Position numbers and translations under genes: made by a program. This document shows positions 1 through 57,531 of a stretch of 64,000 nucleotides of DNA, in pieces. Source of the stretch: Paraglomus brasilianum. Lineage: Eukaryota. The stretch spans positions 1 to 64,000 of the forward strand of contig CAJVPI010000018.1 of assembly GCA_910592345.1 (NCBI GenBank), in the 5' to 3' direction. A model generated the notes under the pieces. The model ran no database searches. It saw only the letters and a program-made list of their open reading frames with translations, and had not been told where the DNA came from. The first letter of the stretch is position 1, and each line of letters starts with the position of its first letter.

Positions 1-1233
1 GCTGAAGTTAATGCTGAAAAAGGTAAAATTAATACTGAAAAAGAAGCAATAGAAGATGGAAAAAATAAAGCCAAAAAAGGTAGAGTAAGTGGTTTAATCA
101 CCCAATTTAAAACTTTTCGAGATAAGCCGGGGAAGAGAAGTTATCGAGAACTATTATTTATGCAGAATATTTTGGGGTGGATTAAAAAGTGAGAAATTTT
201 GAAAACGGATGCCACTTTTGATCCCGTTGCCGAATTAGCCAAGTTAGATGCCGTTGAAACTGATAATCAAGGTAAACTAGCTAAATATAACCACTGAGTA
301 GGACATGGCACTCACTTTACGGAAAGGTTAGATAATTGAAAAAAAGATGATGGCAAATACTTTAATAAGGAGGCAGTCAGAAATTATTTGCAAAGTATAA
401 AAGATTCTTTAGAATCCGTGAGTCGGGGATTAGATCCAGTGGAACAAAATGAGTTAGATCAACTCACTCACTATATTGAGAATGGTGAAGTTCCCATGGA
501 AGAGAGAATTCTGCCCATGGACCTTAAAGCAGCCTTAGGAGTCAAAACTAATGTGTTTAGTGAATTAGCTAAAAAATGAATTAATTATTCCCAAAACATT
601 AATTTCAAGACCAACACTGATGAAATTAGAAATTTGGCTAACAAAGTTAATGGTAAAGGAGCTAAAATTAAAACTCCTGACCTCATTAAATACTGTAAAG
701 AAATTCTTGCTAAAAGACCTGAGTTAGTAGAAGATAATGATATTTGTTATCTTCCGGAAGCCAATGCCAACAATTGAGATTGATTAGACTGATTCTTTAC
801 TCAGGATCCCAAAGTAGTGGTAGGAACCATTGCTTTACAGGAAATCCAAGCAGATAGTAATCTCAAAAAACAAATCCTGAAAGAGATGAAAGATTATAAA
901 GAAGATCAAAAAGGATTGGTTAGGTTAGATCTCTCAGTTTATGGAGATGGTAAAGAATTTAGTGAAGATGGAATTATTAAATACTATACTGAAAAGTTAG
1001 GAGGACAAAATCATGCCAAGAAGAAGTATGAAAAGTCTTTTGAGGATAATAAACAAGAAGGTTTCTGAAGAATTAATAATCCTTCTGCTTGAGCAGCTGG
1101 AGGAGGAATTCTTTTATTACTAAGTAGTCTTGGTTGAGCCATCTGAAAAAGAAAACTCCTGGCTCAATGATGAAACTCCCCTGCTGAACTAGAAGAAGAA
1201 GAAGAAGAAGAAGAGGATGAGGATGATGATTAA
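1..1233 (+). CDS. 5'-truncated intronless ORF in genetic code 4 (TGA=Trp); Mollicutes-like membrane-anchored protein
   Basis: Frame +1 has no TAA/TAG for 410 codons until TAA 1231-1233, but has 13 in-frame TGA (190, 295, 337, 577, 775, 781, 790, 1066, 1090, 1135, 1144, 1168, 1171) and one TGG. Read as Trp they give NWDWLDWFF and a C-terminal anchor SAWAAGGGILLLLSSLGWAIWKRK plus an acidic E/D tail. K/E/N/I-rich composition. Confidence 0.85.
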
Positions 1234-1248
1234 TAATGATTTGATTGT

Positions 1249-1506
1249 TTATTCTGCCAGTCTTCTTTTCTTTCTTGGTTCGTCATAAGTTGGTGGTAAT
1301 GTTCGTTTATGGTTTATTATCTTTTGTTCTTCTTGATAAATTTCATAAGTAATTTTTTCCTTATCTAGATATTTCTGGAGAGTTTGGGTATCATTGATTT
1401 TAAAAATGTATGGAGCAATTTTTTCTCCTTGCTCTTTCTTTAAAATACTTCAAATAGTGCTGTAATTTTTGGGTTCTATGGTGGATTTGATATAAATTAG
1501 TTTCAT
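1249..1506 (-). pseudogene. Small 85-aa ORF (one in-frame TGA) of a locally repeated family of unknown function
   Basis: ATG 1506 to TAA 1249: MKLIYIKSTIEPKNYSTI(TGA)SILKKEQGEKIAPYIFKINDTQTLQKYLDKEKITY...LPPTYDEPRKKRRLAE. Homologous DNA at 16392-16440 and 19014-19207. Confidence 0.55.
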
Positions 1507-1794
1507 ATACTTTATTTTTATATAGGGGTAGTCCTATATTGCTCCTGTTATGGTTTATTATTATCATTATTATAGACAAGCACCATTATTACTTTCAAAA
1601 TGTTATTGTCAAATTAGTTAACTATCAGCCACATCAGCCTCACATTTATGTCACATAACAGAATGTTCACTTTGTCTGGTTTTGTTGCAGTCTGCCCCAT
1701 ATTAAGCAACAATAACTTTGCGATCGTGCCATCAATCGAGTTTTTGACTACAATTGCGTCGTCATAACGAGCTTACGGGAATAGAACTGCATTA

Positions 1795-3120
1795 TGTAGT
1801 ACCCCCCAGAATGATTTTTACAATACCGCCTGGCATGATACCAAATATTTTTATTTAAAACAAAAAGTTTAGCAACTAATTCAAACAGTCAAGGAGTAGT
1901 TGTACATGTCGGGATAGTATAATGTTAATTTTAATGCAACCGAGCTCTTATGTACTGCTTCCGAGCACCGTCAGCGTGGCGGAACTGAGCCCCCTTTATC
2001 AGTGCCACACTCAGTACCACACTCAGTACCACACTTGGATGTGGTCGATCACGCCTTATATAGTATAGAAACATGTATAGAATATTCCAGACACTTCTGT
2101 CATACATACAATTATGGAAAGCGTCAAATATATATTTTTATTGAATAAATTATTCGGTATCCGAATTGAATAAAAACTTTACTTCTAATATTTTTAATAG
2201 TTTATCACATCTTTTAGACTTTATTCCGTTATACATTTCTGAACAGTCTCGCTCATCTGTTCAAGAAGAGTCTCTATCTTGCAAATAATTTCTGCTTTTC
2301 AGTATTCGGAGAATCTAGTATTGAGATTACTGTGAGTTAGAGTTTCAATAAACTTCACAGCAACTTGATTATGTTTACTTAGCCATGTCTCAATGAGCAG
2401 TTTGTTAAGTTTTCTAAAGAGTATCTCCGATCAAAAGTTCAATATCCCCCATATAAAGATTGTCGTTCTAATCGTGCAATATCAACTGCTGCTTGTACTG
2501 ACTACAATATCGTAAATCCCACTGTTCGGTAAGAATTTCATTTGCTTTGCACTGTGCTTCATACAAACCACGAATCGTAATCGCATTATCTGTAACTGTC
2601 CTTTTAAATCTTCTATTTCGTCTCTGATTTTCTAGCTGCCTCTGCATCTGTGTTAACTGATTGGTGAGGTCAGTTATTAACTGTGACTGCTGATTTTCCA
2701 GTTGACTATATACTTCAGAAGTCTTCTAACTCTCTGTCAAGTTCGGCAACTACAGTACATCAGGCTGATCAACGGGAATGGCATTATCTTCATCGGTGTT
2801 GAATCGAAGTCTCTTATTATCTTGAACGGAACCTATTAGCGTTAGATATTGGTAAAATTGATTAGTAGCAATAATCTGATTATAATGTTTTTCGCAGATT
2901 GAATAAGATCCTAAACTAGAATGAAGGTTAGTAGATTATTGTGATATAATGAGAGTCATTTGGCTGTCTCCGAAGCACTAGTACAGTAGTATGCCGCCAT
3001 CTTTACAACTCTTTCGTCTCGCATGGCTTTAATCCAACTTCTCACCCAAGTCTGCAAAAAGACATTTGCTCTTGCTGTCTGCTTAACCGACACTATTTTA
3101 AATACTGGAATAGTTAGGAG
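1795..3120 (-). mobile_element. Possible highly degenerate LTR-retrotransposon relic (gag-like fragment plus LTR-like segment)
   Basis: Minus-strand fragment VRSWIKAMRDERVVKMAAYYC (~2985-3050) resembles Ty3/Gypsy gag. 1795-2108 is bounded by TGTA...TACA and contains short CACACTCAGTAC repeats. Many stops; no TSD found. Confidence 0.3.
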
Positions 3121-3925
3121 ACTGTCTTATGACGCGAGGCAACTTTGATTTTTAATTAAAAGTGGTAATGACAATTATATTGTTCATACAATCGCTTGAC
3201 TTTACCGGTATAGCCAGAATTGACTGCAATGTGACGCGCATACAACAAATCTACTCGAAATTGTTTAATATTAACCAAACACTTGATAAAATTGCAATGG
3301 GAACGTTTTCAGATTCCGAAATTCATTATTTTAAAGTATGATCGCAAAGACTTTGGAGAAAATATCGATCGTACCATCACATACGCAGAAAACATTTGTT
3401 GAATGTGGAGCGTGGAGACGGAGGATTAGTAGTCTAGGTCTGTTAGTAATAAATTGGATAGTTGGGACTATATATATGACAAGACAACACTCTCGCTCAT
3501 GCAGCACCACTTGGATAAATAAGAACGCTGGGCAACTAGTCATCTCAATCGCCTGATCTTGTCAGAAACAATGGGCAAATCCAAGATAGATATATTAATC
3601 TTATAAGTGTATGTCGAAAAGGTGCAAGTTTACATTAGAGGCAAAGAAGGCCAACTAAAATGCTATGACAAATACTATACAGCTTTGGTATGACGGTTCG
3701 ACGAGCCTGTATATTATTAATTAATAAATAGTACAGAATTGGTAAAAAACAAATGCCAAAACTATCGCTACCACTGTTAAAAGTGTTATCGCGCTACTAT
3801 TGTGATGCTTTAGTTTTGACACATGCAAGTCAAAAACTAACATATATCTATACACTCCAAATAGCACACTAGAGGTTCAAATGGAAGAAATAGGATTGGA
3901 TCCAAAATTGATTGTTCATGTCAAT

Positions 3926-6900
3926 CTACTCTTCAGAAGCGAGAATGTCCAAACACGTCACGACACCCATAACTCCGCTAATGAAATAACTAGCTTCGCT
4001 ACTCTTAGACCCAACAGTACATGTGATTGTGGTCTTGACGTTTTCTAACTTATTAACGTAGTTGAACATGTCCTCGTCCGTACGATCATCACCAATTGCA
4101 AGAATAAAATCAGGCACACCGGCAAGAAGAATACGGGAGACGGCAACCGCTTTATTGGTATTACGAGGCATAACCTTTTAATAATGATTGGATGTGAGAA
4201 AAGACACATATATATATATACCAAAGAGTAAGTTTGTTAATTGAAGCGAGAAATGTAAACATTTGCTATGAAAGTGCACTTATTTACCTCGAGCTTTTTA
4301 TTCCCGGCAACCGCATGAATGGGATATATTGTTCCCAGTGCATCTTCTATGTGATTTTGACATTCTGCTGCTTGCCATGCTCTATGTACAAGACATATAA
4401 ATTAGTCATATCAATTTAACGAATTTCTATATTATCACCTGACATCTATTTAATAAACCATTGATTCCTGGGTATCGATCGCTTCGACTTACCCATAGCT
4501 TTGGTTGTCGGCGGAACGATAATGCTGAAAACATAAACGATATATAATGTAAGTCGTCATGGCAAACACAAGCACGCCCTATCAGGTTGAACACATACCC
4601 ATACAATAGATACATCCTTCATTTCTATATATGATCCAGGAGTTCTCTCCGCAAAGTAGTCGAAGATCTGTTTTTTACGACATCATACCATTTGTAAGTC
4701 ATAATTTGTATTGACTTTTGCAGCAATGCAGCTTACCTCCTGGACCTGCTCCCTCCATCCTATGTCTATGTCGGAAATAAGACTTTCCCAATCACCACCA
4801 ATTGGTTTAATAAATGCACCGTTCTCTGCACTCAATCCAAGATTAGGTATATCACCCAATCGCTCATCAAGTGATTGCCGCGTCCGACCGCTCATCACAT
4901 ATACTTGATTCTTAGGGTTGCTGCAAAGTTTTTTCATTATATTGACATACTCCTGAGGCGGCCTGCCTGATGTGTTGGCTTTCTCGTAAGGAACAAGAGT
5001 TCCATCATAGTCAAGAAGGATTCTGATGGAGAGAGGTTAGACGTTGAAGTTGAAGAGTCAGCAGACCTAATTCATTGCATGCAATTATGCATTCTTACAA
5101 ATGAGTTGGCTAAAACACGTACAATCTCTTCTCGGCCTTGTGGAAAGCGTCTTCGAAAGATTTGGGATTCAAATGCGGAATATGTATAGAGAAACGTCGC
5201 TGCATGTCACTATGCACTTTCTCCAACTCGGTGATAAAACTCTGAGCCCAGAACTGGGCAGAATGGGTAGTGACGTTTTTAAATAACTCCTACCAACCGC
5301 ATATGAAAGTGAAAGTCAGTGCATCATATTAACGCATATTGTCAATACATGATAATACAAAACCTTCCATCGAACGGTTGCATCTTCGTCCGACATATTC
5401 AATGCTTCATGGATTGCATCGGCTGTTTCCTTCAGTCAAAATCATAGATGGGCATTAGACTAGACAACCATTGGAATAAAAATCAAAATTGTATTTATCG
5501 AATCACGTATACCCTATAATCCCATGGATTTATACGGATAGCAGCACCAAAACTTCCGTAAGTCCCTGCAAACTAATAAAATGCACCAGTAACTTCATTA
5601 AAATGCTATTCGCACGCGGTATAACCTATTCCGCATAATCACCTCGCTAAGAATCAACGGTCGGCGAGTTTCCTCCTGGCAAACGACATATTCGTGCGAT
5701 GTCAAATTCATCCCGTCACGAAGTGAGGTAATAAGACATGCATCAGCAGCAGTCAGCAAGGCCAAGTACTGACTGAACGTAATATCTTTGTGAAGGTAAT
5801 TAACAGGCTGGTACGCGAGATTACTAAATTTCGAATTTATGCCAGAGACAACATCTGAGACTTGGCTTTGAGTTTCATTTTGATCAGTCGTTGAGAGAGC
5901 GACCTGGATTAAGACAACCTAAGTATTGAATAATAGAAATGCATTGATTATGGTTGTACATAGAAAGATTTGTTCATTTCGACTCCATTACAATATACTA
6001 GATGACTGACTTTGCCTTGCCACTCTGGATAGTTTGTAAGGAATCTCTCAAAAGCAAGCATCTTATGTCTTACTCCCTTGACGTAATCGAGTTTATCACG
6101 TGCCACTACTAGTTTCTTTCCATTATATTTCTCTTTAAGCAGACGCGTCCACTTTAAGACTTCGGATTCTTTCCTGCATAGCAAATAGTGTATAGAAACG
6201 GCAATATGGCAAACTAAGCATCGTCAGATACATCTCAATCTCCACGTAAATTTACATACCTTTTTTCGTTCAATGCCTGAACGTCAATCCCTTGAGAAAC
6301 ATATACAATATCGTTCAATCAAGATAAACGGGCCGTGCAGACAAAAAAAATTACAGACTGCATTCTAATTACCAATTGGAAATATTCCAACGGATACAAA
6401 ATTGTTTTCTAACTGGATGCCTTTCGGCGTTGCCTCCAAAGCCAAGATGCGCGAACAAGTCTGGAAGAAATGTCGTGCAAAAGAATATGTCTAATAATAT
6501 TGAAATGATATAATTAGGTTAAGTTAAGGTTATTGCATTTGATAGATGAGCAAATCGATCAGCATTCGATTATCATACCTGAAATCCGATCAAATCGGCT
6601 CCAAGAACTCCTTCCAATAGCTGCTTACGTACTGGATGGCAATTTACAGAAGTGAGTATATTTAATAGCATTGGGATGAATAAACTGCACATTGATTATT
6701 AATAGACATACCGAATAAACACCTAAAGATTTCAGAACTTGGAAATGGAACGTGCAAGAAAAATCCGATCATAGCATTAGGACGCTTCTTCCTTAGCATC
6801 TCGGGTACCAATAGCAAATGGTAATCATTGATCCAAACTAACCGAATTCACACCAATTTATTAGACACGTCTTCAGGATATAATTAACACGCGACAAAAC

Positions 6901-8526: not shown

Positions 8527-11488
8527 GATTGAATCGCCATGATTGGTCGTATTTTACATTGTGGCTTAGCAGTTACAATGACATCATACTTCTGTAATAG
8601 AATATGAGCGTGAGAATTTCACGAGTATGCGGTAACATTTCATTCGAGTACAATTTCTGGTCTAAACCTGACATGGAAATGGCGTCGGCTACTTATTTTA
8701 TAACAATAATATACCTAGTTAATAATCGGGGGACTCGATGTTCATATTTATATTCGCACTCATTTCGACAAAGTAATAATATATCGCACCCTCGCCAAAT
8801 CAGCGAGGCCTCGTACACGATCGATTTTTAGCCAACCATGACGATATATGATTTTGTCCATAATTAGTATCCGTCAATAAATTGTTTAAACCAGAAGAGT
8901 TCACTGATACCCACCATAGCTGATCAACGGTTAGTGTCGCAATTCAGGTTCAAGTGATATACCGCACTAATGCCCACACTTGATAAATGCACCTGAGGCG
9001 GTATAAGTTCCCAGATCTTACATGGGAGCGATATTCTGTTTATGCCCTGCTCTGACTATTATATTCTAGAGATATAACCGTTTTGTTGTCATCAAATTCA
9101 TGAGCTTGTCGAACTGCCAATACACCGTGATTATGTCTGGCCTCTTCATTATTCTAAGCTGTCCATAATTATTGACTTGCGAATGAAACTAAATGTCCAT
9201 GCATTTATTAGAATAAATAGGAAAAAGTTGCGTATCCTTTACAAAATCGATAGAAAACTGCTCATATTATTCTTCCAATTTTTAGGCGCAAAAATTTAGA
9301 ATTAACAATTTTCGGGCTGCTCTGTTTGGTGTTAAGAATGCTATCGTCATTAGGGGATAATACATAATCAATGTCATAATTTGTAGTCGTTAATTTTTAT
9401 TTCGCAACGCAAACAAAACCAACGTACGGTAAACCAGTCTTTTTTTATGAGAAAATGAGACTTTCAGGAACACCCTAAACCTTTTTTTTAAAAACATGGT
9501 CGTAAATTATATTTGCTTGCTGAGCGTATTTCTGCGCGTTTCGATGGTGGGTGGAGGGCTTGCCATTTTCACCTGTAATAGCAATATAGTAGGTACTGGC
9601 GCTGGATTGATGGCTAGGATAAATATATAAGCGCGATTTCCGTTAGATGTTCATGTTCCTTTAATGTTCAATTAACATTCCTTTCTAATATACGAGTGGT
9701 TCTTTACACTCTGAAATACATTATTGATAATTTGTTCCTTAGAGCGCGCACCACTAATCCTTATATCAACTATTCGTCTAAGTAATAATAATAAATGCAT
9801 TTAAACTTTATATTACTAAGATTCATTACTATTACGAGATTTATAATTAAACAAGCCAATGCGCTGTCCACAATAAAAGCAATTAACACCATACAGGGGA
9901 CATAAAATTGTGTATTTACTGCCACTACATTAAAATTTGGTCGCTAGCACTCTCAAAAAATGCAATCAATATGTTTATGTCTTCGGCATATCTCTAATTT
10001 GTGGTAGAAAGAATAATATCACTTAAAACTTCTTGCTGCGCACATTTTTCCAACCATTAAATATAATAGTAACTGGTTCCAGAAGAGCAGAAACTTGGGC
10101 AACTTCTATCGCTGGATTTACGAAAGCAACTAAATCGCGAAAAGTAATACTTCCAACGAATAAAAGTAGCACCATACGAGGGAGAGCGTTCGTATATCGA
10201 CTTTGAGATTTAGCTTTTTTCAACGACACCTCTACTCCTGATTCGACAATTAATGACCTTAACCACTAGTTTTAAATACTCACGATGCTAGATTAGTCTT
10301 GCATACGCTATCCTCAGATTATTATTTAATTCGGACGATTGTTTTTCGATAAACCGTAAATAATTAATATAACGTCAGAATTTCATCCAAAAATCTTAAT
10401 TGCCATACCTATCAGACATCACATATGACATACATGTGCCTGAAATAATTGACATAGATATTATCTTGCATATTTGCTTATTGTAATAAATCGGCATTAT
10501 TTCTTTCTCTAGCTTGTTGCAATAATGGACAGCATTACGCGCTACTAGTTCTTCATACAATCATTACAATCCCATAGTTGGTCGATCAAAAAACATGTGA
10601 AATCCACTCGCAATGTTTCTATTCAGTCATATCCCATACCGCGCGATCTGAAATATTAAGTAGAAAAATAGACTTTGCAAGCATTCTGCTATCTCAATAC
10701 AAAATATATAGTAGCCCGTTTGTTATGTCGACATCACCGTTATTGTCATCATCTACAAAGTGATAAAAGGCTCTAGTCAACTTTAAAATATAGATTAGTA
10801 TTCACGAAGCGACAGTAATGAGCAAGATACAAATAAACGTAATGACAGCAAGTCAGTGAGACTCGGAAAAAGATTTTGTTTGAGGCGGACTTAAAACAAT
10901 ACTCGCATTTATTAAAGAGCAGCCAGACAATTCGTCTGCTGCACGAGAAGATGTGGTTAATTTACGACGTGAATTAACAGAGTGGAAAGTCTTTAGACAA
11001 AGGTCTCAGATCGTTTTGTGACAAGTTAGATCGAATAAAACGAGTAAAACATGTTAATATAATAGTTGAACTCGTTGTGTCACCTGCTTTTTATGCCCTT
11101 ATACCAGTCTCTCCTAACAGCCCAATTCCATGGACGGTATAAACAGATTTCAATTAATTGACGGTATGAATAAAAAGATTCAATACCCAATAAAGGACTA
11201 CCAACTCAACAGTATTATACAAGAAAAGCACCATTGAAAAAGGGTAAGGATTTCATTAGTAAAATTTTAGGGAAAAAAATTACGAGAATACTTTTGTTGG
11301 TGCGTGCAAATCATATTCTCGTATATGTATATGACGATACTTTTGATAAAATTGTCCAAGCTCTTACAGTATATACATGTCATACTAGAGGTATTGCAAA
11401 AATATTATGTAATACACATAAAATAAACTAAAAATACAAGCATTTTCATAACAATGTTCCATAATACAAGCTCGCTCATAATTAAAAG

Positions 11489-13446: not shown

Positions 13447-14519
13447 TCCTAACACCGACAACAGATATCATATGCGAACAATGTGAGGTCTTTGCTAAAC
13501 AAACAAGATTACTTACTATTTGGCTTTTGGTGTGTTAAAAGTGCAATGGGGAAGAAAGAAAAGGCTGCATATCCCGTGACGATCAACGTGGGAATTACCA
13601 CAAACCTCACGAACCTCGAGAAATTATGATGGCTAGAAATTATGCAAACTGCTTATATCATACTTTACCTTATGCAATATTGTATTAAAAATTGTATTCG
13701 ATAATGCTCGCTTGACATCTACCACGTTCGTAAACATCCCTCACTCGCGAGCTGAGGTGACAGCGTATCGAATATGCTACTTGTTGCGAGGATGTCCTGA
13801 AATATGGGAGCGGAACTTCCAATTGGGCTGCATGTAATAATAATATTTTACGTATCCTATTTTACACGAAAAATTGTTTATACCGCGGTGCTCCGAAATA
13901 TTACACGTGTACCTATGAGTCGGACGCGTATGTAAACAGTCACCCCTTCCCGTTTTTCTTTTCATCATGCATAGAAACTGTATTAGTGCAAACTAATTTT
14001 TGGCAGCTTGTCCGTACGTTATGTTTACTCTTTATCAGGAGTTTTTCTTTATAGAAAATGCTTTACAGACCCAGTCATTTTTATATTATCACCCACCCAA
14101 GAACAACATGTCATTATGCTAAAAACGAAAAGTAGCTTTGTTATTATAACTTTACGCAAATCTATTAAACCGAGTGCCTGTAAATGTTGTGTTGCTATAC
14201 ACTATTGTTATTGGTATTTAAAAATTTCATAATAACCCTAGTTTGAGACTCAAACTAACACTTAATTTACGTTTATTTTAACTATTACATAGTCACTGTC
14301 GTTCATCATTTTGTGATAATTAATTTCTCTTTGAAGCTTTAATAGGATATAATGCGATTAATGCTTCGCACAATTGTTTTACGCTTACTACCTAATCAGA
14401 TTGTCCTGATGCTTGTCGTATCTTTGCTTGATCTGACGGTCAAGGAGCTCGTATATCCAAAGGTCATGTGACTATCATAATAATAAAAAAAAATTACTAC
14501 AAACTTTAATTACGAGATG

Positions 14520-15470
14520 TACAAAGGCAACCCCGTTATAACGATTATCCCGTTATAACGAAAAATTTTCAAAACCCCCCATCCAATCATATCCCGCTTA
14601 ACCGAATTTTAATTTGTTACCCGTATCCGAAGATTTTTTTTTAACAAATTTACCCCGTTAAACCGAATTTTCCGCAGTAACTCGAATTAACTCATCCTTT
14701 GTTAACCGAAGGAAGAAAATTTTTCAACCAATAAAAATGCAGTATAAAAACTGACAACATTTATTGCACAGGAGGACCTTTTCGCGTGAATTAAACAAGA
14801 TAAAAAAGAATTATACAAAAAGATTGGCGATTCGAAGGTTCAAACTAATCTTGGCAACTTCTTTACAATTAATCGACCGATTTGTAATATTTAATGCATC
14901 GAGTAATAAAGCGAATTATTATTTTAGCTAAGTGCGCATTTATTTAATATTCATTGTCCCCGACGGCGTGACTACAGGAGGGTCGAAAACGTATGTTACT
15001 ACAAAGGCAACCCCGTTATAACGAAGGCGTCCGTCCGGTTATTTTCCTTCGGTATAATGGGTCTTTGGAATAACGGAGTCACCGTGTTAACCGAAAGTTA
15101 TTCATGATACCGATTCCTTCGGAATACAGCTTTTGTTGAAAATGTGCTTATAAAAAGGTTGTGATTATATAGAGGTTTTTTTCTGTAAGTTAAATAGTAA
15201 TTGGTTCTCAAACATGGTGTGCTTATAGAGGTGACTGTAAAGAGGGTTGACTGTACAGTCAAACTTGGTTATAACGAACTTTGGTTATACCAAAGATCTG
15301 TTTATTATGAAGATTTTCTCCAAACCAATCATTATTGAGCCTATAGCAAATTTCGTTAAGAAATCTGGTTATAAATAACAAATATTTGTCAGAACAACAT
15401 AATGGGCCACTAATTGACTATAACAAAGATCTTTATATAAAAGGATAATCTTCGTTATATGCAATATTCA
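14520..15470. mobile_element. Cluster of non-autonomous TA-target (pogo/Tc1-mariner-type) MITE ends
   Basis: Identical 25-mer TACAAAGGCAACCCCGTTATAACGA at 14520-14544 and 15000-15024; recurring GTTATAACG/GTTAACCG subterminal motifs; terminus TACAGTCAAACTTGGTTATAACGA at 15254. Confidence 0.6.
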
Positions 15471-16391
15471 TTATAAACAGATTGAAGTTTACTATGAAAA
15501 TTGTACCACCGTAAATTGGGAATTGTCGTTTCTGATCCTTCGAGCTTTAAGATAACGTTAGAAAATTTAAATACGAAAGACACAAAAAAACGAAAATTAA
15601 AACGTAATCTATATGTTTGTTATAAACATCGAATATTGTTTCAACGTAAGTTGATTAATATGATAGGATAATGTCTAACCATTAACAAAAACCATCTGTT
15701 CTAGTAGATGATAAATAATTGGAATTTTCGAATACTGCCGGCACAACTTGTACTTGGTGGAAATTCACACCATGTATTTTTGATCGCGTTGAACACCGAA
15801 ATGGAGTTACAGAGTAATGAATTAGAATAGTGATATAAAATTTATTATATAAACGACCTTTTCTCTAGGCGGAAAAGATCAAGTTGGTTATTGCTGAATG
15901 GTAAAATTGAAGCAAAACCACTTCCCTGGAGGTGGATTTATCTCTTGTAATAAATATTAATATCTTTTATCTATTATTGGAAATGTTACATTGTTGTACT
16001 AGTAACAGTTCTACGTTTTTGCTAACTATTGCCGGATAAGTCAGTTTAGTAACATCTAACTGTAGATTAAGCAGATGCTGGAGTATCAGACCAGACAGGA
16101 AGGCATAGTTCAATTGTCAGTGCACATAATTTTTTCTTTGTCTACATAGTTTAGCACAGCATAAAAGTGAGAGTTTATACTTTTGCAATAGTAACAGGAG
16201 GTATAAAGAGCCGGCCTTCAAGAATTAGCCATGCCTTAGATGAGACCATGTCTAGAACTAAGTTTTGAGATATCTCCTAGTCAATTTGAACACAAACATT
16301 CTCCCAGACAACCACATGTAACAGTTGGTTTATGGTTGCTTGAAATAAAAAGAGTAAAGCCTATTACTATATTTGGAATCATCAATGTTGG

Positions 16392-16440
16392 TCCATACAT
16401 TTTTAAAATTAATGATACCCAAACTCTCCAGGAATATCTA
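16392..16440 (+). repeat. 49-bp inverted copy of part of the 1249-1506 ORF
   Basis: TCCATACATTTTTAAAATTAATGATACCCAAACTCTCCAGGAATATCTA matches the reverse complement of ~1365-1414 with 2 mismatches (PYIFKINDTQTLQEYL). Confidence 0.85.
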
Positions 16441-16987
16441 AAAATCATTTATCATTATTAAATTACTAATTTTAAATCACTTAATTTCAATCAAGGTCAT
16501 CTCTTATTTTCTTTGACTTCAATTTGAGCATGTGGCCAATTCCCAATATATTGAGATACGTTTTCTGACAAGGAGGCGTATAGCGATCTCAGTAGTAAAA
16601 CGTTTGCATTTTCTTTTTAAGACGTCGGCTGGCAGTTATTTCTCCGCCATTCATTGCTTTCAGCTGGGCTATTAAAAATATATTTAGAGAGAGCTCGAAA
16701 CGCTTCACGTAATTCGGCAAAATTTCTCTTGGAATCTTTTTTGAGCAACCACAATTGCAACCTACCTCTAAGAAACGTATTGCCTTTCATATTCTGTTGA
16801 ACCATTGTATTCATTATTTTTCATATATGGGTAATCCTATATATAAATTTTACAAATTGTATCGTTTTTTATGAAAATAGAAAAGTCAATTTTTTATTTA
16901 CAGGTAATATTTTACAAGAAATTGATAAAAGCCTACAAATTTATTAATCATTGATTTTAAACATCATAATCACTCTAAATAGATTCA

Positions 16988-17950
16988 TCATTCAAAAGAT
17001 TTTTTCAACAAATACATGTCATGTTCTATTTTAATTGGTTTTCCACAATCAACATTATGATGCCATGGAACATTGGTGTTGATAAAATGTGGATAAAGTA
17101 ACACTCCCATCAAGTCCACACCAATCAAAATCTATAATTTTCATTTGTGTCATAATGTTTGATACCTGCAAGTCACCGTGTGCAAAACCTCCAGCATGTA
17201 AGATACTGACAACATCTTCTGCTTTCCTTAACAATACTTTTTGATCTTGCTTCCAGTCATGAATAGCAGTATGGGCAGTGATATTAATATATTCTTGCTC
17301 TGATAGATATTCCATGACAACCATGATCCAGCCAGTTATATGATTGTATGCATAGACTTTGGGGGCAACTTTATTCATTGCACAGTAATTGTGACCTTCT
17401 ATACCATACCTTTTGACAAATTTCACAACTATCAATTTGTCCTGAAAATCACCAGACTTTCCTTTCACTAAAAAGAGTGGCTTTCCATTATATAGTGGTT
17501 TCACATAAGAAAAGTCAAATTCTCTTGACTTTGTCACAAACTTGTGAATGTATGGAAAACTGTCCTCATGTAAGAGATTACTGGTGTTAATATAGTGAAC
17601 CTGTCCATAATGTGCTTGACAATAATGGTTCAGCTCTTGAAGGCCCATCTTCAATGCCACAAGTGCATGAGCTAGAGCTTCCATTGCCATGGATCATTTT
17701 TCATAAACAGGTGTGGGAAGATCAGGGTAAGAGGTTCCATTGTAAAGTCCTTGCCTAAAACAGCTCTGCCAATACCCAGATAAGGTCCAGAAAGGTAAAG
17801 AAGAAAGGCAGGATTAAGTCCTTGATGTACTATATTACTGTTGTTTAGGCCAATCGTCTTCGTGTAAGAAGCACAGTTTCGTACACTGGATCCTGCATAG
17901 ATACTTGGACTCCGAATCGGAAAAGCTTTTTCCACAAACTTGCATCTCAT
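16988..17950 (-). pseudogene. Frameshifted protein-kinase-like pseudogene of the multicopy early-diverging-fungal (Crinkler-associated-like) type
   Basis: VVKFVKRY, MVVMEYL, HGDLQVSNIM, IIDFDWCG. Frameshifts near 17690 and 17098; the second frame continues YPHFINTNVPW...IEHDMYLLKKSFE*. Intronless. Confidence 0.8.
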
Positions 17951-19013
17951 CGTTATTATCAGTAAGCTTTCTCCTCTTCAAAAACTTGAATCATCCAGTT
18001 TAGTTAATTGTTTCATAAAAGACTTTTTGACTATTACCTGATTGTAATGTCTTTCACATGTCTAAAGTCAAACAATGAAGATAGTTCAGGAAGATACTTA
18101 GCCATTTTGTTAGACTTTTCGCTGCTGTACTAGCAGACGCATGTCGCCATCTTTGATTCTCTTTAGTTGCGCATGGTGCTAACTGAATATTCTCGAAAGA
18201 GAATCAAATACGCAAGGTAGATTTCTGGCCGAACTCATTATAATAGTTGTTGTGTAGCAAAGCGCAATTCTAAAAGTGAATTGAGAAGAAACTGCTTTTC
18301 AAAGTTGCGTGGTATATGCTTGTAAAAGTGTAAATCGGTTTGAAATTCTCCAATCAGATTTCGAGATATTCTAGAACTGACTATTATTATTATTTATTAT
18401 TATATATAAAAACAACACAAATTTGCTTATATTTGAATAATCACACCAAACGCGATAATAATAAATATTGTAAGAAGTAAAACCTTTGCTTGAACAAACT
18501 CACAATCTTCATCAACAAACGTTCGCAAAAAATGCTTAATTTCCCGAGCGAACTCTATTTTGGAATATTTATTGGTTTCGTTCTCAGCCTGTTGATAAAT
18601 GGCATGACTTTTAATAGCCAACTCCGCAATATGGGAATATTAATTAAGAATATGAAGTCCAGAAAATCATCAATGATGACCAAAGAATAGGTTATACTCA
18701 TAAATGGCTTTGGGTCCGAGTATTTTCCTCCCATGCAATCACTCTGGTGCTTTTAGTATTATTTATATTTTCAAGAGCGCGCATTTATGACAAAATAATA
18801 AAACTATGCATACAAATCAAATTATTATTCTTTGGTTGTAATTGTGTCAAAGTAGCAAAATGTGGTCAAGGCTCAATGAATGCACTCAAGCAGTCTTTTA
18901 TCAGCAAGTTAATAACCATAAGGAATGGTCTTTCATTGATAGGTCACTTGATCGGTGGAGGCTCTGTTATGTTAAATTTGCTTTCTTTACATTTCTTCAG
19001 TTTTCGTTTCACT

Positions 19014-19207
19014 GTAAGTTGGTGGTAATTGGTTTTTATTTTCGTTCTTCTTGATAACTTTCATAAGCAATTTTTTCTTTATCTATAGATATTATTGGAG
19101 AATTTTGGTATCATTGATTTTAAAAACATATGGAGCAATTTTTTCTCTTTAAAATACTTCTAATAGTGCTGTAATTCTTTGATTCCATGGTGGATTTGAT
19201 GTAAATT
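19014..19207 (-). repeat. Decayed second copy of the 1249-1506 ORF
   Basis: Colinear with 1285-1499, sharing TAAGTTGGTGGTAAT, GGTATCATTGATTTTAAAAA, TATGGAGCAATTTTTTCTC, AATAGTGCTGTAATT and ATGGTGGATTTGAT; carries a ~10-nt deletion and stops. Confidence 0.85.
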
Positions 19208-21382
19208 ACCGTATTCTTCCGAAAATAAGCAACACATTTTTGTTATAGTGTTGCTTATTTTCGGGTAGTTTAATAAAACGAAAGAAATTCGATCCCGCAA
19301 CCACCGAATCATGTGATTTTTGTAGAATTTCAGATTCATTTATCCGTGATTTATCACGTGAATACGCGAAACGGGTTTTAAACCTATTTTTTCTTCTATA
19401 CAAAACAGAGAAGAGTTGTTAAAACTGTTAAACGTAAGACCCAAATTGTAAAACAAACACGAAATTTGTACTCAATTGAACATAAAAAGAGGTTATTGTG
19501 CAACATCTTCTTTTGTTCGTCTAATAACCCTCAGGTTGGCAACGCACTCCTCTGCATCATTCCCTCGAGCTACTAACCAATATAACTTTGTGTTGGCCTT
19601 CTCCAATTCTTGCTTCCAGCTTAGCGGTGTCCATGTTTTTCTTTGCACAATGTAATGCTAATATACTGATCGTTCACAGTTGACGATTTACCATTTATGT
19701 AATATTAACTTGGGCGCAGCAGAAAATTATCCAATACATCAATTATATTGTTCTATCAATCTTTTATGCAGACTCAAAGAAATTGATTTCGTTTAATATC
19801 GAGTTTGCAGCATCTATCAGTTTCCAATAGTTGCCATTATTGATAGTCGTTGTCTTTGACATTTGTTAATTGAGTCTAAAAAGCTTTGGTACTCATATTA
19901 TGCACGTCATTTGATACACGTGATCAGAATTCTCTGTCACACATGATAATAATAATAATAAGCAATTTAACAATAAACGCGAAAAACGCCAATTAACAAT
20001 AGGCTAAGATGTCTTTGTCATTCTTCATTGCATTATGTTTGATTTGCTTGTGGCGTTAGACGGATTGCCAACACACACACGCGCCCCCTAATAATATCAT
20101 GTAAGTCTGCAAGTTATTATTACCGTTTTCAGTAGAACTTTAACCGTACATAATCCTCTCTTTTTTTCCATCAAATTAATAATTAAAGAATTTTGATACA
20201 GTTTCGGCAAATACCTAACGAGGAGGACCTTGTAAAGATGAGCATTTGTTTGGAATATTATGCCAAGTTCCCAACCGACAAAAAACTATTCAATGAAACC
20301 GCGTGCGGCCATCAAAGCCACAGGGTTTACTAAATCATGTGAATTATGCATGATCACACATTATTGTTGTTACTTTGAACCCCTGAATCGAACTTTAAGG
20401 GCGAAAATCTTTCCCCTCAAAAGAGATAGTGTTGTTTTGCGCAAAAAGAAATATTATTTCCGGAACGAATCTCCCCATCCGATATTAATATGGAGACCTC
20501 CGTGACCTAAAATTGAGGTCTGGAGGGGGATGGTGAGGAAACGAAAAAAAAAAAAGTTTCCAAAAAGTGCTTCGTTCAGATTTGCTCAAAACAAAAAGTA
20601 ATAATAACGACATGCGTATCATTGCTTGAATAAGATTGATTCTGTCGTAATTCAAACCCCAAAGTTCAATGCTCTTAACATGTGAAGACTTTCTCTGCAT
20701 TGTATACTAGTCAGTTGATAGCAGCGGACACTACCATTTTAGCAAATGGTACTACTATCAAATATCATTCCATCGCAATATAGTATGTCGGCAATTGAGT
20801 CGAACGAAAAGAATATACCACCAAATTACCCGGATAAATTAGAGAATAGGCAATTACAAATCAAACACAAAATATCGCTTAAATAGCCACATATCCACGC
20901 TATTGAATATTGGTTAAAGGATTATTTAAAAGTAATTCCGTGAATTTCATTTTTTTAGAATAGACATTACAACATGATTTCCCTTAAAGTGGAGAAGTTC
21001 AACAAAGTTGGTTCCGAAACTTTACAGCAAAGTGAATTAGTAGAAAGGGGGAAGGGTATGAATCAAATAAAACTTACAGTAAATGACATAATTTAAGAAT
21101 GGCAAAATATTCCTAAGGGTTTGGGTTTAAATCACCAATTTGTATAAAAAAAAACACGAGTATATATCAACGAAAGAGAAAAATAACATCCGTAATCCAA
21201 GAAGAAAAAGAAAATCTAAAGATATCCGTGTTAAATAGGTTTCGGATAATTTATGCAGAAATGAGTGAAATGAGAGAAGGAGAACCTCTATTTGTATCTG
21301 AAAACAAGACACAGTATTCCAAGATTTATGACCATCAAACACCAACGTGTATAAGTGTTCGATCACCATCACGCACATAGCT

Positions 21383-54329: not shown

Positions 54330-55100
54330 TTTTTGTCCCGATACATCTCAAGACCCTCCTATTTTTTGAATCAACTGCAAGTTTTTGAAGTATAGGCCTC
54401 ATTTTGAATAACAACATGGACCCCTAATTCTTCTGCTTTAGCCACCAGGTTGGTGAAATTGATAGTGGCTCCAACAGAACAATGTGCGAACGGTTTTGTT
54501 ATCTTTCTTGTTTCGATTTACCATGCTTGAACTTCGGTGTTTGATTTTTCGTCGCATCTGAAAGATTTCCTTATCAAGTCGCAAGGTCTTTTTCTTCTTA
54601 CGTTTTGAACTAGAGGCAGCCAGCTTGTCCTTCATAGAAAAAAGATTATCCATATACTTGCATAGACGAATGATTCGTCCAATGTCGTATTGGCCAATTT
54701 TGCCTACACCTTTAGTAGGAGAGTACCATGTAAAGGTTAGGGTTAATGAACAGAACTCCGCTTGGGTTTCGCGGAGTTGTTTTTGCGTCTCGTAAACCCA
54801 TGAAAATTTCCATTCATTAGTTTTGCGAATATATGTGATCTTGTAATCGGACGTTATTCTGTGAGGAACAGGCCACTTATTATTATGCCTTTTTTTTTTC
54901 TCGAAATAAAGCGGCCACAAATCGTGTTTGTCGTCCAGAGTTTATGACGGTATACGGAAAGCATTGATGGGTTATGGAAATGGGTGATATAAAAACGGTT
55001 CCACGTGGATTTTGTGCACGAATTATTATCGTTTGTTTCGAGATCGAAATGACAAAGACGAACTTTGCTGATTCGTATATTTTGGTTAATTATCTTGTCT
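54330..55100 (-). pseudogene. Degenerate Fanzor2 / IS607-TnpB-like RNA-guided endonuclease
   Basis: In order: LSFRSR, FCSL[DPG..R lost]TFTWYSP, RLCKYMDNL..QMRRKIKH, TVRTLFCWSHYQF, then after a frameshift KAEELGVHVVIQNEAYTSKTCS (EAYTSKTC at 54377-54400), IQKIGGS and M.RD. Multiple deletions. Confidence 0.85.
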
Positions 55101-56653: not shown

Positions 56654-57034
56654 CCCCCCAGACAAAAGAAGTTCAGCAAGACTGATCCAAGCAAGTTGGA
56701 TAGCGCTTGTTTTTTGCGGTTTGTTTAGAGCATCCACGTGCAGGATGAACAACAAATCCCCCAGACAAAAGAAGTTCAGCAAGACCGATCCAAGCAAGAC
56801 CGATCCAAGCAAGTCGTTTAGAGCATCCACGTGCAGGATGAACAACGTGGCGAGACAAAAGAAGTTCGGCAAGACTGATCCAAGCAAGTCGAATAGCGCT
56901 TGTTTTTAGCGGTTTATTTGGAGCATCCACGTGCAGGATGAACAACAAACCCCCCAGACAAAAGAAGTTCAACAAGACCGATCCAAGCAAGTCGAATAGC
57001 GCTTGTTTTCAGCGGTTTGTTTAGAGCATCCACG
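56654..57034. repeat. Minisatellite, about four imperfect ~100-bp units
   Basis: Recurring blocks AGACAAAAGAAGTTC, AAGAC(T/C)GATCCAAGCAAGT, ATAGCGCTTGTTTT and GAGCATCCACGTGCAGGATGAACAAC. Confidence 0.9.
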
Positions 57035-57429
57035 TTCGTATAAAACTCATCTTGACGTATCTGAATAAAAAGATAGAGGAGAAGGTATGAGTAAACGAGC
57101 AATTAACTTTCAATAATAAACCCAGTATATTCACGATATGGTCTGTATTCTTTACTTACATGGAGCTGAGACCTTCCTTTTGCTTGAACCCGAGGAGAGA
57201 GTTTATGTGTTTATTTCAAATAATAAATAAGCAAAATATTGCAATATTACAATATTGTATGGTTAAAGAATTTGGGGGATAATGTCTTTAAATATTTGAA
57301 TGGCGGGTATGAAACATGCAAGCTTTGAGGGAATGAAATAGTTGTATTGAAATAAAGGTCCATGCGCAGCAGACGATTTTCCGATCGTGTAGGGTCTGTT
57401 ACTTGGTATTATGTCTGCACGTCTTTTGC

Positions 57430-57531
57430 GGCATCGCGGGAGGATTACATTGGCATCGCGGGAGGATTACATTGGCATCGCGCGAGGATTACATTGGCAT
57501 CGCGCGAGGATTACATTGGCATCGCGCGAGG
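57430..57531. repeat. 22-bp tandem repeat, ~4.6 copies
   Basis: GGCATCGCG(G/C)GAGGATTACATT at 57430, 57452, 57474, 57496 and partial at 57518. Confidence 0.95.

Follow-up and report, generated by a model that had tools for sequence, protein, structure and literature searches.

A genetic-code-4 gene fragment joined tail-to-tail to a high-copy repeat at the start of a Paraglomus brasilianum contig

The first 1,233 nt of a Paraglomus brasilianum contig, of which a stretch of 64,000 nt was analysed (hereafter the window), hold a gene fragment in genetic code 4, in which TGA is read as tryptophan. The fragment, ORF1, lies tail-to-tail with ORF2, a gene that belongs to a high-copy repeat. Transfer of DNA from endosymbionts to fungi and contamination of fungal assemblies by Mollicutes-related endobacteria (MRE) are both already known; the recurring joint between gene and repeat is the new element. 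With middling confidence, we read ORF1 as endobacterial-type DNA that a mobile repeat of the fungus carries in the nucleus, where it is unreadable. A code-4 gene of an MRE, or of one of its mobile elements, would have been captured by the fungal repeat and joined to it tail-to-tail; it would reside in the nucleus as a passenger, where translation in the standard code would stop at the first TGA. A more far-reaching claim, which we put forward as doubtful, is that an undescribed mobile element moves DNA repeatedly across the boundary between endobacterium and fungus, and that a code-4 membrane-protein family has been captured many times into several Mucoromycota nuclei, joined to a very abundant, unnamed repeat gene of 85 codons that can be read in either code. 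If true, this would provide a datable record of MRE infection in hosts for which no MRE genome has been reported.

ORF1 (1..1233, forward strand) occupies frame +1, with 410 codons free of TAA and TAG at 1-1230 and a TAA at 1231-1233. It is 5'-open, the frame already running at window position 1. Our recount of the frame agrees with the first-pass annotation, which had been made from the letters alone: 13 TGA codons, one TGG, and CGA at codons 40 and 49 (nt 118 and 145). Shuffling the bases of the stretch 200 times gave code-4 frames of up to 244 codons (mean 105), and among the 46 code-4 frames of at least 150 codons in the window ORF1 has both the highest TGA count and the highest purine share (0.61). 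In an alignment of 15 homologs, nine of the 13 TGA positions carry Trp in at least two thirds of the rows, and this conservation extends to relatives at 32-42% identity. Trp occurs in part of the rows at codons 261, 364 and 382, and at codon 259 in none of nine homologs, which have Gln or Arg instead. These homologs are predicted proteins, the codons themselves being visible only for a 2,039-nt JGI metagenome contig (L001), in which 12 of the 13 codons are also TGA and codon 259 is CGT. Since, in addition, nt 775 is a C in all contigs of the public runs X1 and X3 that cover the site, the first W of WDWLDWFF is not a tryptophan of the family; the first-pass annotation had presented this motif as Trp-typical, a description that stands for the nine conserved positions. 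Its reading of TGA as Trp is borne out by the Trp columns, one TGA (codon 259) falling on a Gln/Arg column.

The same columns decide against a standard-code fungal gene in which Arg codons decayed to TGA through CpG deamination, an explanation that we regard as hardly tenable. It would account for the CpG-poor ORF1 stretch and for the TGAs of codon 259 and of ORF2, which sit on Arg/Gln columns, but it is refuted by the nine conserved Trp positions, and the 12 TGAs shared with L001 and the Trp-poor, gapped fungal gene models described below also speak against it. The first-pass annotation had argued from the survival of CGA codons. The rejection of deamination stands, but on other grounds: code 4 is supported because Trp is kept in the homologs, not because of the CGA codons, given that the ORF is CpG-poor and one of its TGAs falls on an Arg/Gln column.

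ORF1 represents the C-terminal 410 aa of a family of helical proteins of about 1,010 aa. Two full-length members, both intact and metagenomic, measure 1,008 and 1,017 aa; ORF1 matches residues 618-999 of the former at 55% identity, and a search for longer homologs, of 1,078-3,075 aa, yielded none. The structure model of ORF1 is all-helical. Its confident part (residues 1-348, mean pLDDT 80) gives way to a single hydrophobic helix, behind which the protein ends in an acidic tail. A C-terminal membrane anchor is predicted at codons ~363-391 (1087..1173, +) from hydropathy and from a low-confidence helix in the model; the hydropathy maximum is 1.59 at residue 363 and reaches 1.91 and 2.39 at the equivalent place in the full-length members. 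As the first-pass annotation had remarked, Trp(TGA) codons flank this helix on both edges. The Glu/Asp tail behind it (1192..1230, +) differs in length among the copies compared. From this anatomy the product is predicted to have been, most likely, a surface- or membrane-anchored helical protein with one C-terminal membrane helix in the donor. Neither ORF1 nor the full-length members matched Pfam, NCBIfam or PHROGs at the curated cut-off, an Rfam search returned nothing, and the full-length model (pLDDT 56) had no Foldseek match at E<=0.001. In the 410-aa model, VIA aligned residues 1-90 to helical bundles of a generic kind (best Z 7.2) and hardly probed the remainder. The family is undescribed.

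Code 4 is also used outside the Mollicutes, and insertion of mitochondrial or mitochondrial-plasmid DNA in the nucleus would provide another source of the fragment. Nuclear copies of mitochondrial DNA are common, which favours such a source. So does the reading of UGA as Trp in fungal mitochondria (PMC10470734, available part). However, ORF1 and the full-length members lack any mitochondrial, polymerase or (homing-)endonuclease family match in Pfam and NCBIfam. Moreover, the available part of the same study describes the mitoviruses of Glomeromycotina, with a codon use that mirrors that of the host mitochondrion, as rarely using UGA, against a ratio of 13 TGA to one TGG in ORF1. We consider a mitochondrial source very improbable.

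A first homolog search with ORF1 gave ten matches, seven of them named, all from assemblies of mycorrhizal fungi, and three unnamed ENA proteins. In a wider search, the 20 labelled matches among 49 comprised proteins of F. mosseae, F. caledonium, A. leptoticha and Entrophospora SA101, unnamed or hypothetical metagenome proteins, and one Flavobacterium protein (P0168). The latter is spurious, with a match of 38 aa within a repeat protein of 4,931 aa. The named relatives are gene models in assemblies of Funneliformis, Dentiscutata, Ambispora and Entrophospora, five species in all having named matches. There are several copies per species, on contigs of 2-48 kb, and in a tree of 22 rows, from which short fragments were left out, they do not group by host: the window copy pairs with L001 (96/92) and then with D. 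erythropus (95/94). Multiple copies in fungal assemblies, on contigs of up to 34 and 48 kb, support nuclear residence.

Fourteen of these named fungal gene models contain 15 Trp in 5,895 residues, versus 55 in 2,025 in the two full-length members, and they are gapped at the Trp-bearing stretches. From the gaps and the poverty in Trp we infer that the annotators spliced out the TGA codons and that these copies are in code 4 too. The models (P0003-P0007, P0009, P0010, P0137, P0145, P0146, P0149, P0153, P0172 and P0173) thus appear to be code-4 genes with false introns over TGA codons.

The likely source of ORF1 is an MRE or one of its mobile elements. According to the available parts of two studies, MRE are annotated with table 4 (PMC10507103) and their bins have a GC content of 29.2-34.1% (PMC11423566); ORF1 combines code 4 with a GC content of 0.344, about that of the 29-34% range. 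The proposal of an endobacterial origin by the first-pass annotation remains the likely one, but it has not been matched by a homolog carrying the name Moeniiplasma or Mollicutes, either among the labels of the matches (10/10 in the first search and 20 of 49 in the wider one) or in the GTDB scans. These scans, which need exact short patterns and cover one genome per species, gave 23 and 349 pattern matches, none of which was confirmed; the patterns of the first scan all contain Trp and may miss TGA.

The occurrence of the family can be compared with a published screen for MRE (Longley et al. 2024, PMC11423566), on the assumption that the same assemblies are concerned and that unlisted ones were screened. 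In the available part of that study, MRE contigs within fungal assemblies are common (19/389), A. leptoticha has an MRE bin of 639 kb, and for F. caledonium the supplements record MRE contigs totalling 20,361 nt, along with 36,210 nt that NCBI has flagged as contamination. The comparison can be read in two directions. The distribution of the family is not that of the large MRE bins: among hosts with such bins in the available portion of the table, only Ambispora leptoticha gave named matches, and F. mosseae, D. erythropus and Entrophospora SA101 are absent from all seven supplementary files of the screen. That three of the five species with named matches are missing there favours nuclear residence. 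Yet the four contigs with F. caledonium copies of ORF1 total 37,993 nt, close to the 36,210 nt flagged; this near-equality, the A. leptoticha bin and the frequency of MRE contigs in fungal assemblies count against nuclear residence.

ORF2 (1249..1506, reverse strand) is convergent to ORF1 and lies 15 nt beyond its stop; the first-pass annotation had overlooked it. It is an 85-codon gene of a high-copy repeat, with a basic PRKKR end that we take to resemble a nuclear localization signal. At E<=0.001 its family comprises 907 clusters, the best 120 of which are 76-91% identical to it, and it is named in D. erythropus only. Residues 10-63 are near-invariant, and the family represents a very abundant, conserved soil-fungal repeat gene; it has no Pfam, NCBIfam or PHROG match. 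The single TGA, at codon 19, was considered as a sign of a second code-4 gene and rejected: it sits on an Arg column (Arg in 113/120 aligned homologs, the best 120 of the 907 clusters) and therefore provides no evidence for code 4. The homologs are nearly free of Trp (10 in 10,907 residues).

Upstream of ORF2 a short hairpin is visible in the sequence (1520..1539), with a similar stretch at ~16808-16842. The non-coding repeat end (1507..1704) terminates sharply: in the public runs X1, X2 and X6 copies stop at 1702-1704 as loose ends at 1702/1704, beyond which the flanks are unrelated (agreement about 0.5). The window holds two further, decayed copies of ORF2, namely a fragment in the opposite orientation (16388..16440, +; 94% identical over 53 nt) and a frameshifted copy (19015..19208, -; 81% identical) with AGA where 1450-1452 has TGA. 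Summed depth over 1201-1800 in four public runs exceeds the depth of the flank, wherever the latter has coverage, about 100- to 700-fold; being a sum over all contigs, it does not translate into a copy number. From the many clusters, the additional copies, the depth and the sharp end it follows that ORF2 and 1507-1704 form one end of a dispersed repeat, with dispersed copies and a defined end at 1702-1704 that is followed by varying flanks. The left end lies outside the window, which itself shows neither a transposase nor a left end nor a target duplication. The presence of ORF2 copies elsewhere in the same chromosome, two of them within these 64 kb, and in 907 clusters argues for the nuclear reading, whereas the lack of a visible transposase, left end and target duplication argues against it.

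The joint between ORF1 and ORF2 (1234..1248) is not an artefact of this assembly, since it recurs in independent data, including data from soil. Its 15 nt are identical in L001, which aligns to window positions 4-1482 with 85% identity over 1,479 nt and is the one confirmed locus among the 593 pattern matches listed. A contig of a public run (X1 record 6) spans 1037-1268 and bridges the joint. In D. erythropus, a member of the ORF1 family (gene 7216) and one of the ORF2 family (gene 7212) each occur on a 9,747-nt contig, which is probably one and the same. The identity of 85% around the shared joint shows that the joining is older and more widespread than a single event. The choice offered by the first-pass annotation, a recent nuclear insertion or a mis-assembly, is consequently incomplete, as ORF1 abuts a high-copy repeat through a joint common to independent data. 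The recurrence of the joint in L001, X1 record 6 and the D. erythropus contig favours nuclear residence, and so does the decay of L001, where the reading frame shifts near nt 185 and CGA has become TGA in each of the two ORFs. On the opposite side, the window copy of ORF1 has no frameshift, as the first-pass annotation had observed.

Purifying selection acts on both ORFs. In the comparison of the window with L001, dN/dS is 0.28 for ORF1 (95% 0.21-0.39) and 0.125 for ORF2, and the ORF1 differences are distributed over the three codon positions as 50/27/87. Identity per 100 nt along ORF1 varies from 0.68 to 0.99. A core at ~865-1290 is more than 90% identical and has few changes, mostly non-synonymous; codons 301-400 show 9.5 non-synonymous versus 2.5 synonymous changes, selection being purifying elsewhere. 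The near-neutral appearance of this 3' core rests on 12 changes, several of which lie in one block, and this small number weakens the case for the nuclear reading. As the copies differ mostly at silent sites, the divergent parts must have evolved while translated in code 4, and a single capture followed by neutral copying therefore cannot explain them. Required instead are several captures, or recombination of donor alleles, or a joined unit that is resident in the bacterium. Under the nuclear reading, capture would have happened several times, or the copies would have recombined with donor DNA as it newly arrived, and only the 3' core (about 865-1290) would look like one shared capture. The dN/dS values and the intact members of 1,008 and 1,017 aa resemble live bacterial genes and thereby count against nuclear residence, as does the free recombination of MRE (PMC4916391, available part).

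Selection on both ORFs would equally suit a single code-4 mobile element of the endobacterium, be it phage, plasmid or integrative element, that carries ORF1 together with ORF2, repeatedly enters fungal nuclei and leaves end fragments there. ORF2, being nearly Trp-free, would be readable in both codes, and the patchy multi-copy family over four fungal genera, with a tree that does not group by host, is consistent with such an element. However, neither ORF1, ORF2 nor their joint has a match in IMG/VR, and PLSDB, INPHARED and PHROGs gave none either; ORF2 is far commoner than ORF1 in the public runs and has several other neighbours on its 3' side (loose ends at 1267-1337). The basic end of ORF2, which resembles a nuclear signal, also speaks against an element of this kind. 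MRE are described as carrying phages, IS and integrative elements (PMC4916391, available part), which speaks for it; on balance we judge it unlikely. The sole IMG/VR match to the repeat end (L002) was dismissed as a chance 20-mer without alignment to the window; L002 is a viral contig with no relation to it, and the 20 nt (10001-10020) fall within one of its ORFs, which is large and helicase-like.

The stretch is also poor in CpG. Counted across codon boundaries, ORF1 has 4 CpG against 18.1 expected; the observed/expected ratio is about 1.0 over the window, 0.08-0.16 over 501-1500, 0.22 over 16001-16500 and 0.07-0.3 over 17001-18000. The depletion is thus confined to 501-1500 and two other repeat-like patches. 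This would fit methylation of repeats by the host and counts in favour of the nuclear reading. The excess of TpG expected from deamination is absent from the coding strand, however (46 seen versus 53.9 expected), and Mollicutes can be CpG-poor on their own, so that the depletion is not decisive.

Beyond the repeat end, a second and lower-copy repeat (1705..1991) is likely, as judged from its depth (772 versus 180 for the bin 1801-2000 in X1); it is CpG-normal (ratio 1.22) and separates the ORF2 repeat from single-copy DNA. The fungal flank (1992..6000) contains a trehalose-phosphatase exon (4449-5036, -; PF02358, E 3.9e-30), and the rest of the 64 kb likewise consists of nuclear DNA of the fungus, its exons encoding trehalose phosphatase, ribosomal L21, kinesin, a RING finger and a GATA factor. 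A weak lead (Atlas score 0.86) assigns the host to the Mucoromycota. ORF1 is thus contiguous with a fungal chromosome in the assembly, in agreement with the first-pass annotation. One X1 contig holds 1992-6000 with a single difference in 4,009 nt and starts at 1992. None of the 32 listed contig pieces, which are assembled contigs of public runs and not reads, spans 1704-1992; that the link from repeat to chromosome is bridged by no read or listed piece weighs against the nuclear reading. X1 has a letter other than that of the window in all its contigs at 20 or more places between 417 and 889, and X2 has the exact window letters at 63-404, yet no depth over most of 3201-6000. Such absences prove nothing, because contigs drop rarer variants; they would fit a chimera or copies elsewhere, or else bubble removal and uneven amplification. 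A contig of X2 (record 14) was considered as an empty-site allele and rejected: since it diverges from the window to the left and to the right, a paralogous repeat is the more likely reading. The stretch 2036-2951 is itself a low-copy repeat, from which a diverged X2 copy leaves the window on both sides and in which X3 has loose ends at 2853-2908. In the RNA runs, 0.04-0.06 of the window words are present.

Two nested repeats separate the gene, with which the window opens, from the rest of the sequence, and the assembler may have formed a chimera there: ORF1 joined to ORF2 would belong to an endobacterial genome that had taken up the fungal repeat, and the assembler would have crossed through the shared repeat into a nuclear copy. 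Purifying selection and the mosaic identity of ORF1 (0.68-0.99 per 100 nt) are in line with this, as is the summed depth of ORF1 relatives in X1, 7-16 times that of the flank and again no copy number. Both host-to-MRE gene transfer (PMC10507103) and MRE contamination (PMC11423566) are documented in the available parts of the studies. Against a chimera stand the lack of any named MRE protein among the labelled homologs (10/10; 20 of 49), the concentration of the matches in assemblies without an MRE bin in the available part of the screen, and the decay of L001. We regard it as possible, although rather doubtful.

With the MRE contigs (Ca. Moeniiplasma glomeromycotorum) found in Mucoromycota assemblies (PMC11423566, available part), ORF1 shares code 4, a GC content of 34% versus 29-34%, and homologs mis-annotated as spliced fungal genes in mycorrhizal assemblies. 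Unlike those whole bacterial contigs, it adjoins fungal genes by way of a repeat, further copies of which are dispersed along the chromosome, and it matched no named MRE protein.

Transfer from endosymbiont to host nucleus is exemplified by the Wolbachia insertions in arthropods. Sun et al. 2019 and Torres-Cortes et al. 2015 reportedly described candidates for transfer from MRE to fungus. The NLR genes of Mycoavidus origin in Mortierellomycota are a fungal case (PMC11291939, available part). Here too DNA of an intracellular bacterium lies beside host genes, but ORF1 keeps 13 TGA codons and is untranslatable by the host, is joined to a repeat, and has many diverged copies in several fungal genera.

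Pack-MULEs and Helitrons are eukaryotic DNA transposons that carry cargo. Starships and the Glomhopper Cryptons do so as well (PMC13465315, available part). The ORF2 repeat resembles such elements in its dispersal, sharp end and differing internal neighbours; it differs in having no visible transposase or recombinase, left end or target duplication, in matching no known family, and in a cargo in a foreign code. Within the literature searched, to which most subscription papers did not belong, no description was found of the ORF1 family, of the ORF2 repeat, or of a fungal repeat with code-4 DNA attached to it.

Transfer from MRE to the nucleus is hard to tell from contamination, and genes of MRE that match only Glomeromycotina have therefore been discarded in studies (PMC10507103, available part). 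A bacterial-code gene whose joint to a repeat of the host is fixed offers a marker for PCR or long-read typing of every isolate, whether or not it has been cured. Residence in the nucleus would reveal a route for repeated flow of DNA from endobacterium to fungus, and the gene would mark infections of the past. Even otherwise, no fewer than 14 public 'fungal' gene models are flagged as mis-spliced code-4 genes, and two large families without annotation are named.

Several other features were observed in the window. A repeat-rich block of lower GC (~14300-20000) contains an intronless kinase-like ORF (17055-17693, -; Pkinase E 8.9e-6, below the cut-off), with 1 CpG versus 10.5 expected, which resembles the expanded kinase families of mycorrhizal fungi. 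An exact direct repeat of 25 nt (14520-14544 and 15000-15024, 480 nt apart) lies among short palindromic, MITE-like stretches. A frame of 167 codons (54438-54941, -) has no Pfam, NCBIfam or PHROG match, and we take it to resemble a fragment of a Fanzor/TnpB-type nuclease. Finally, tandem arrays are found at 56654-57035 (103 nt, 3.9 copies) and 57430-57531 (22 nt, 4.6 copies).
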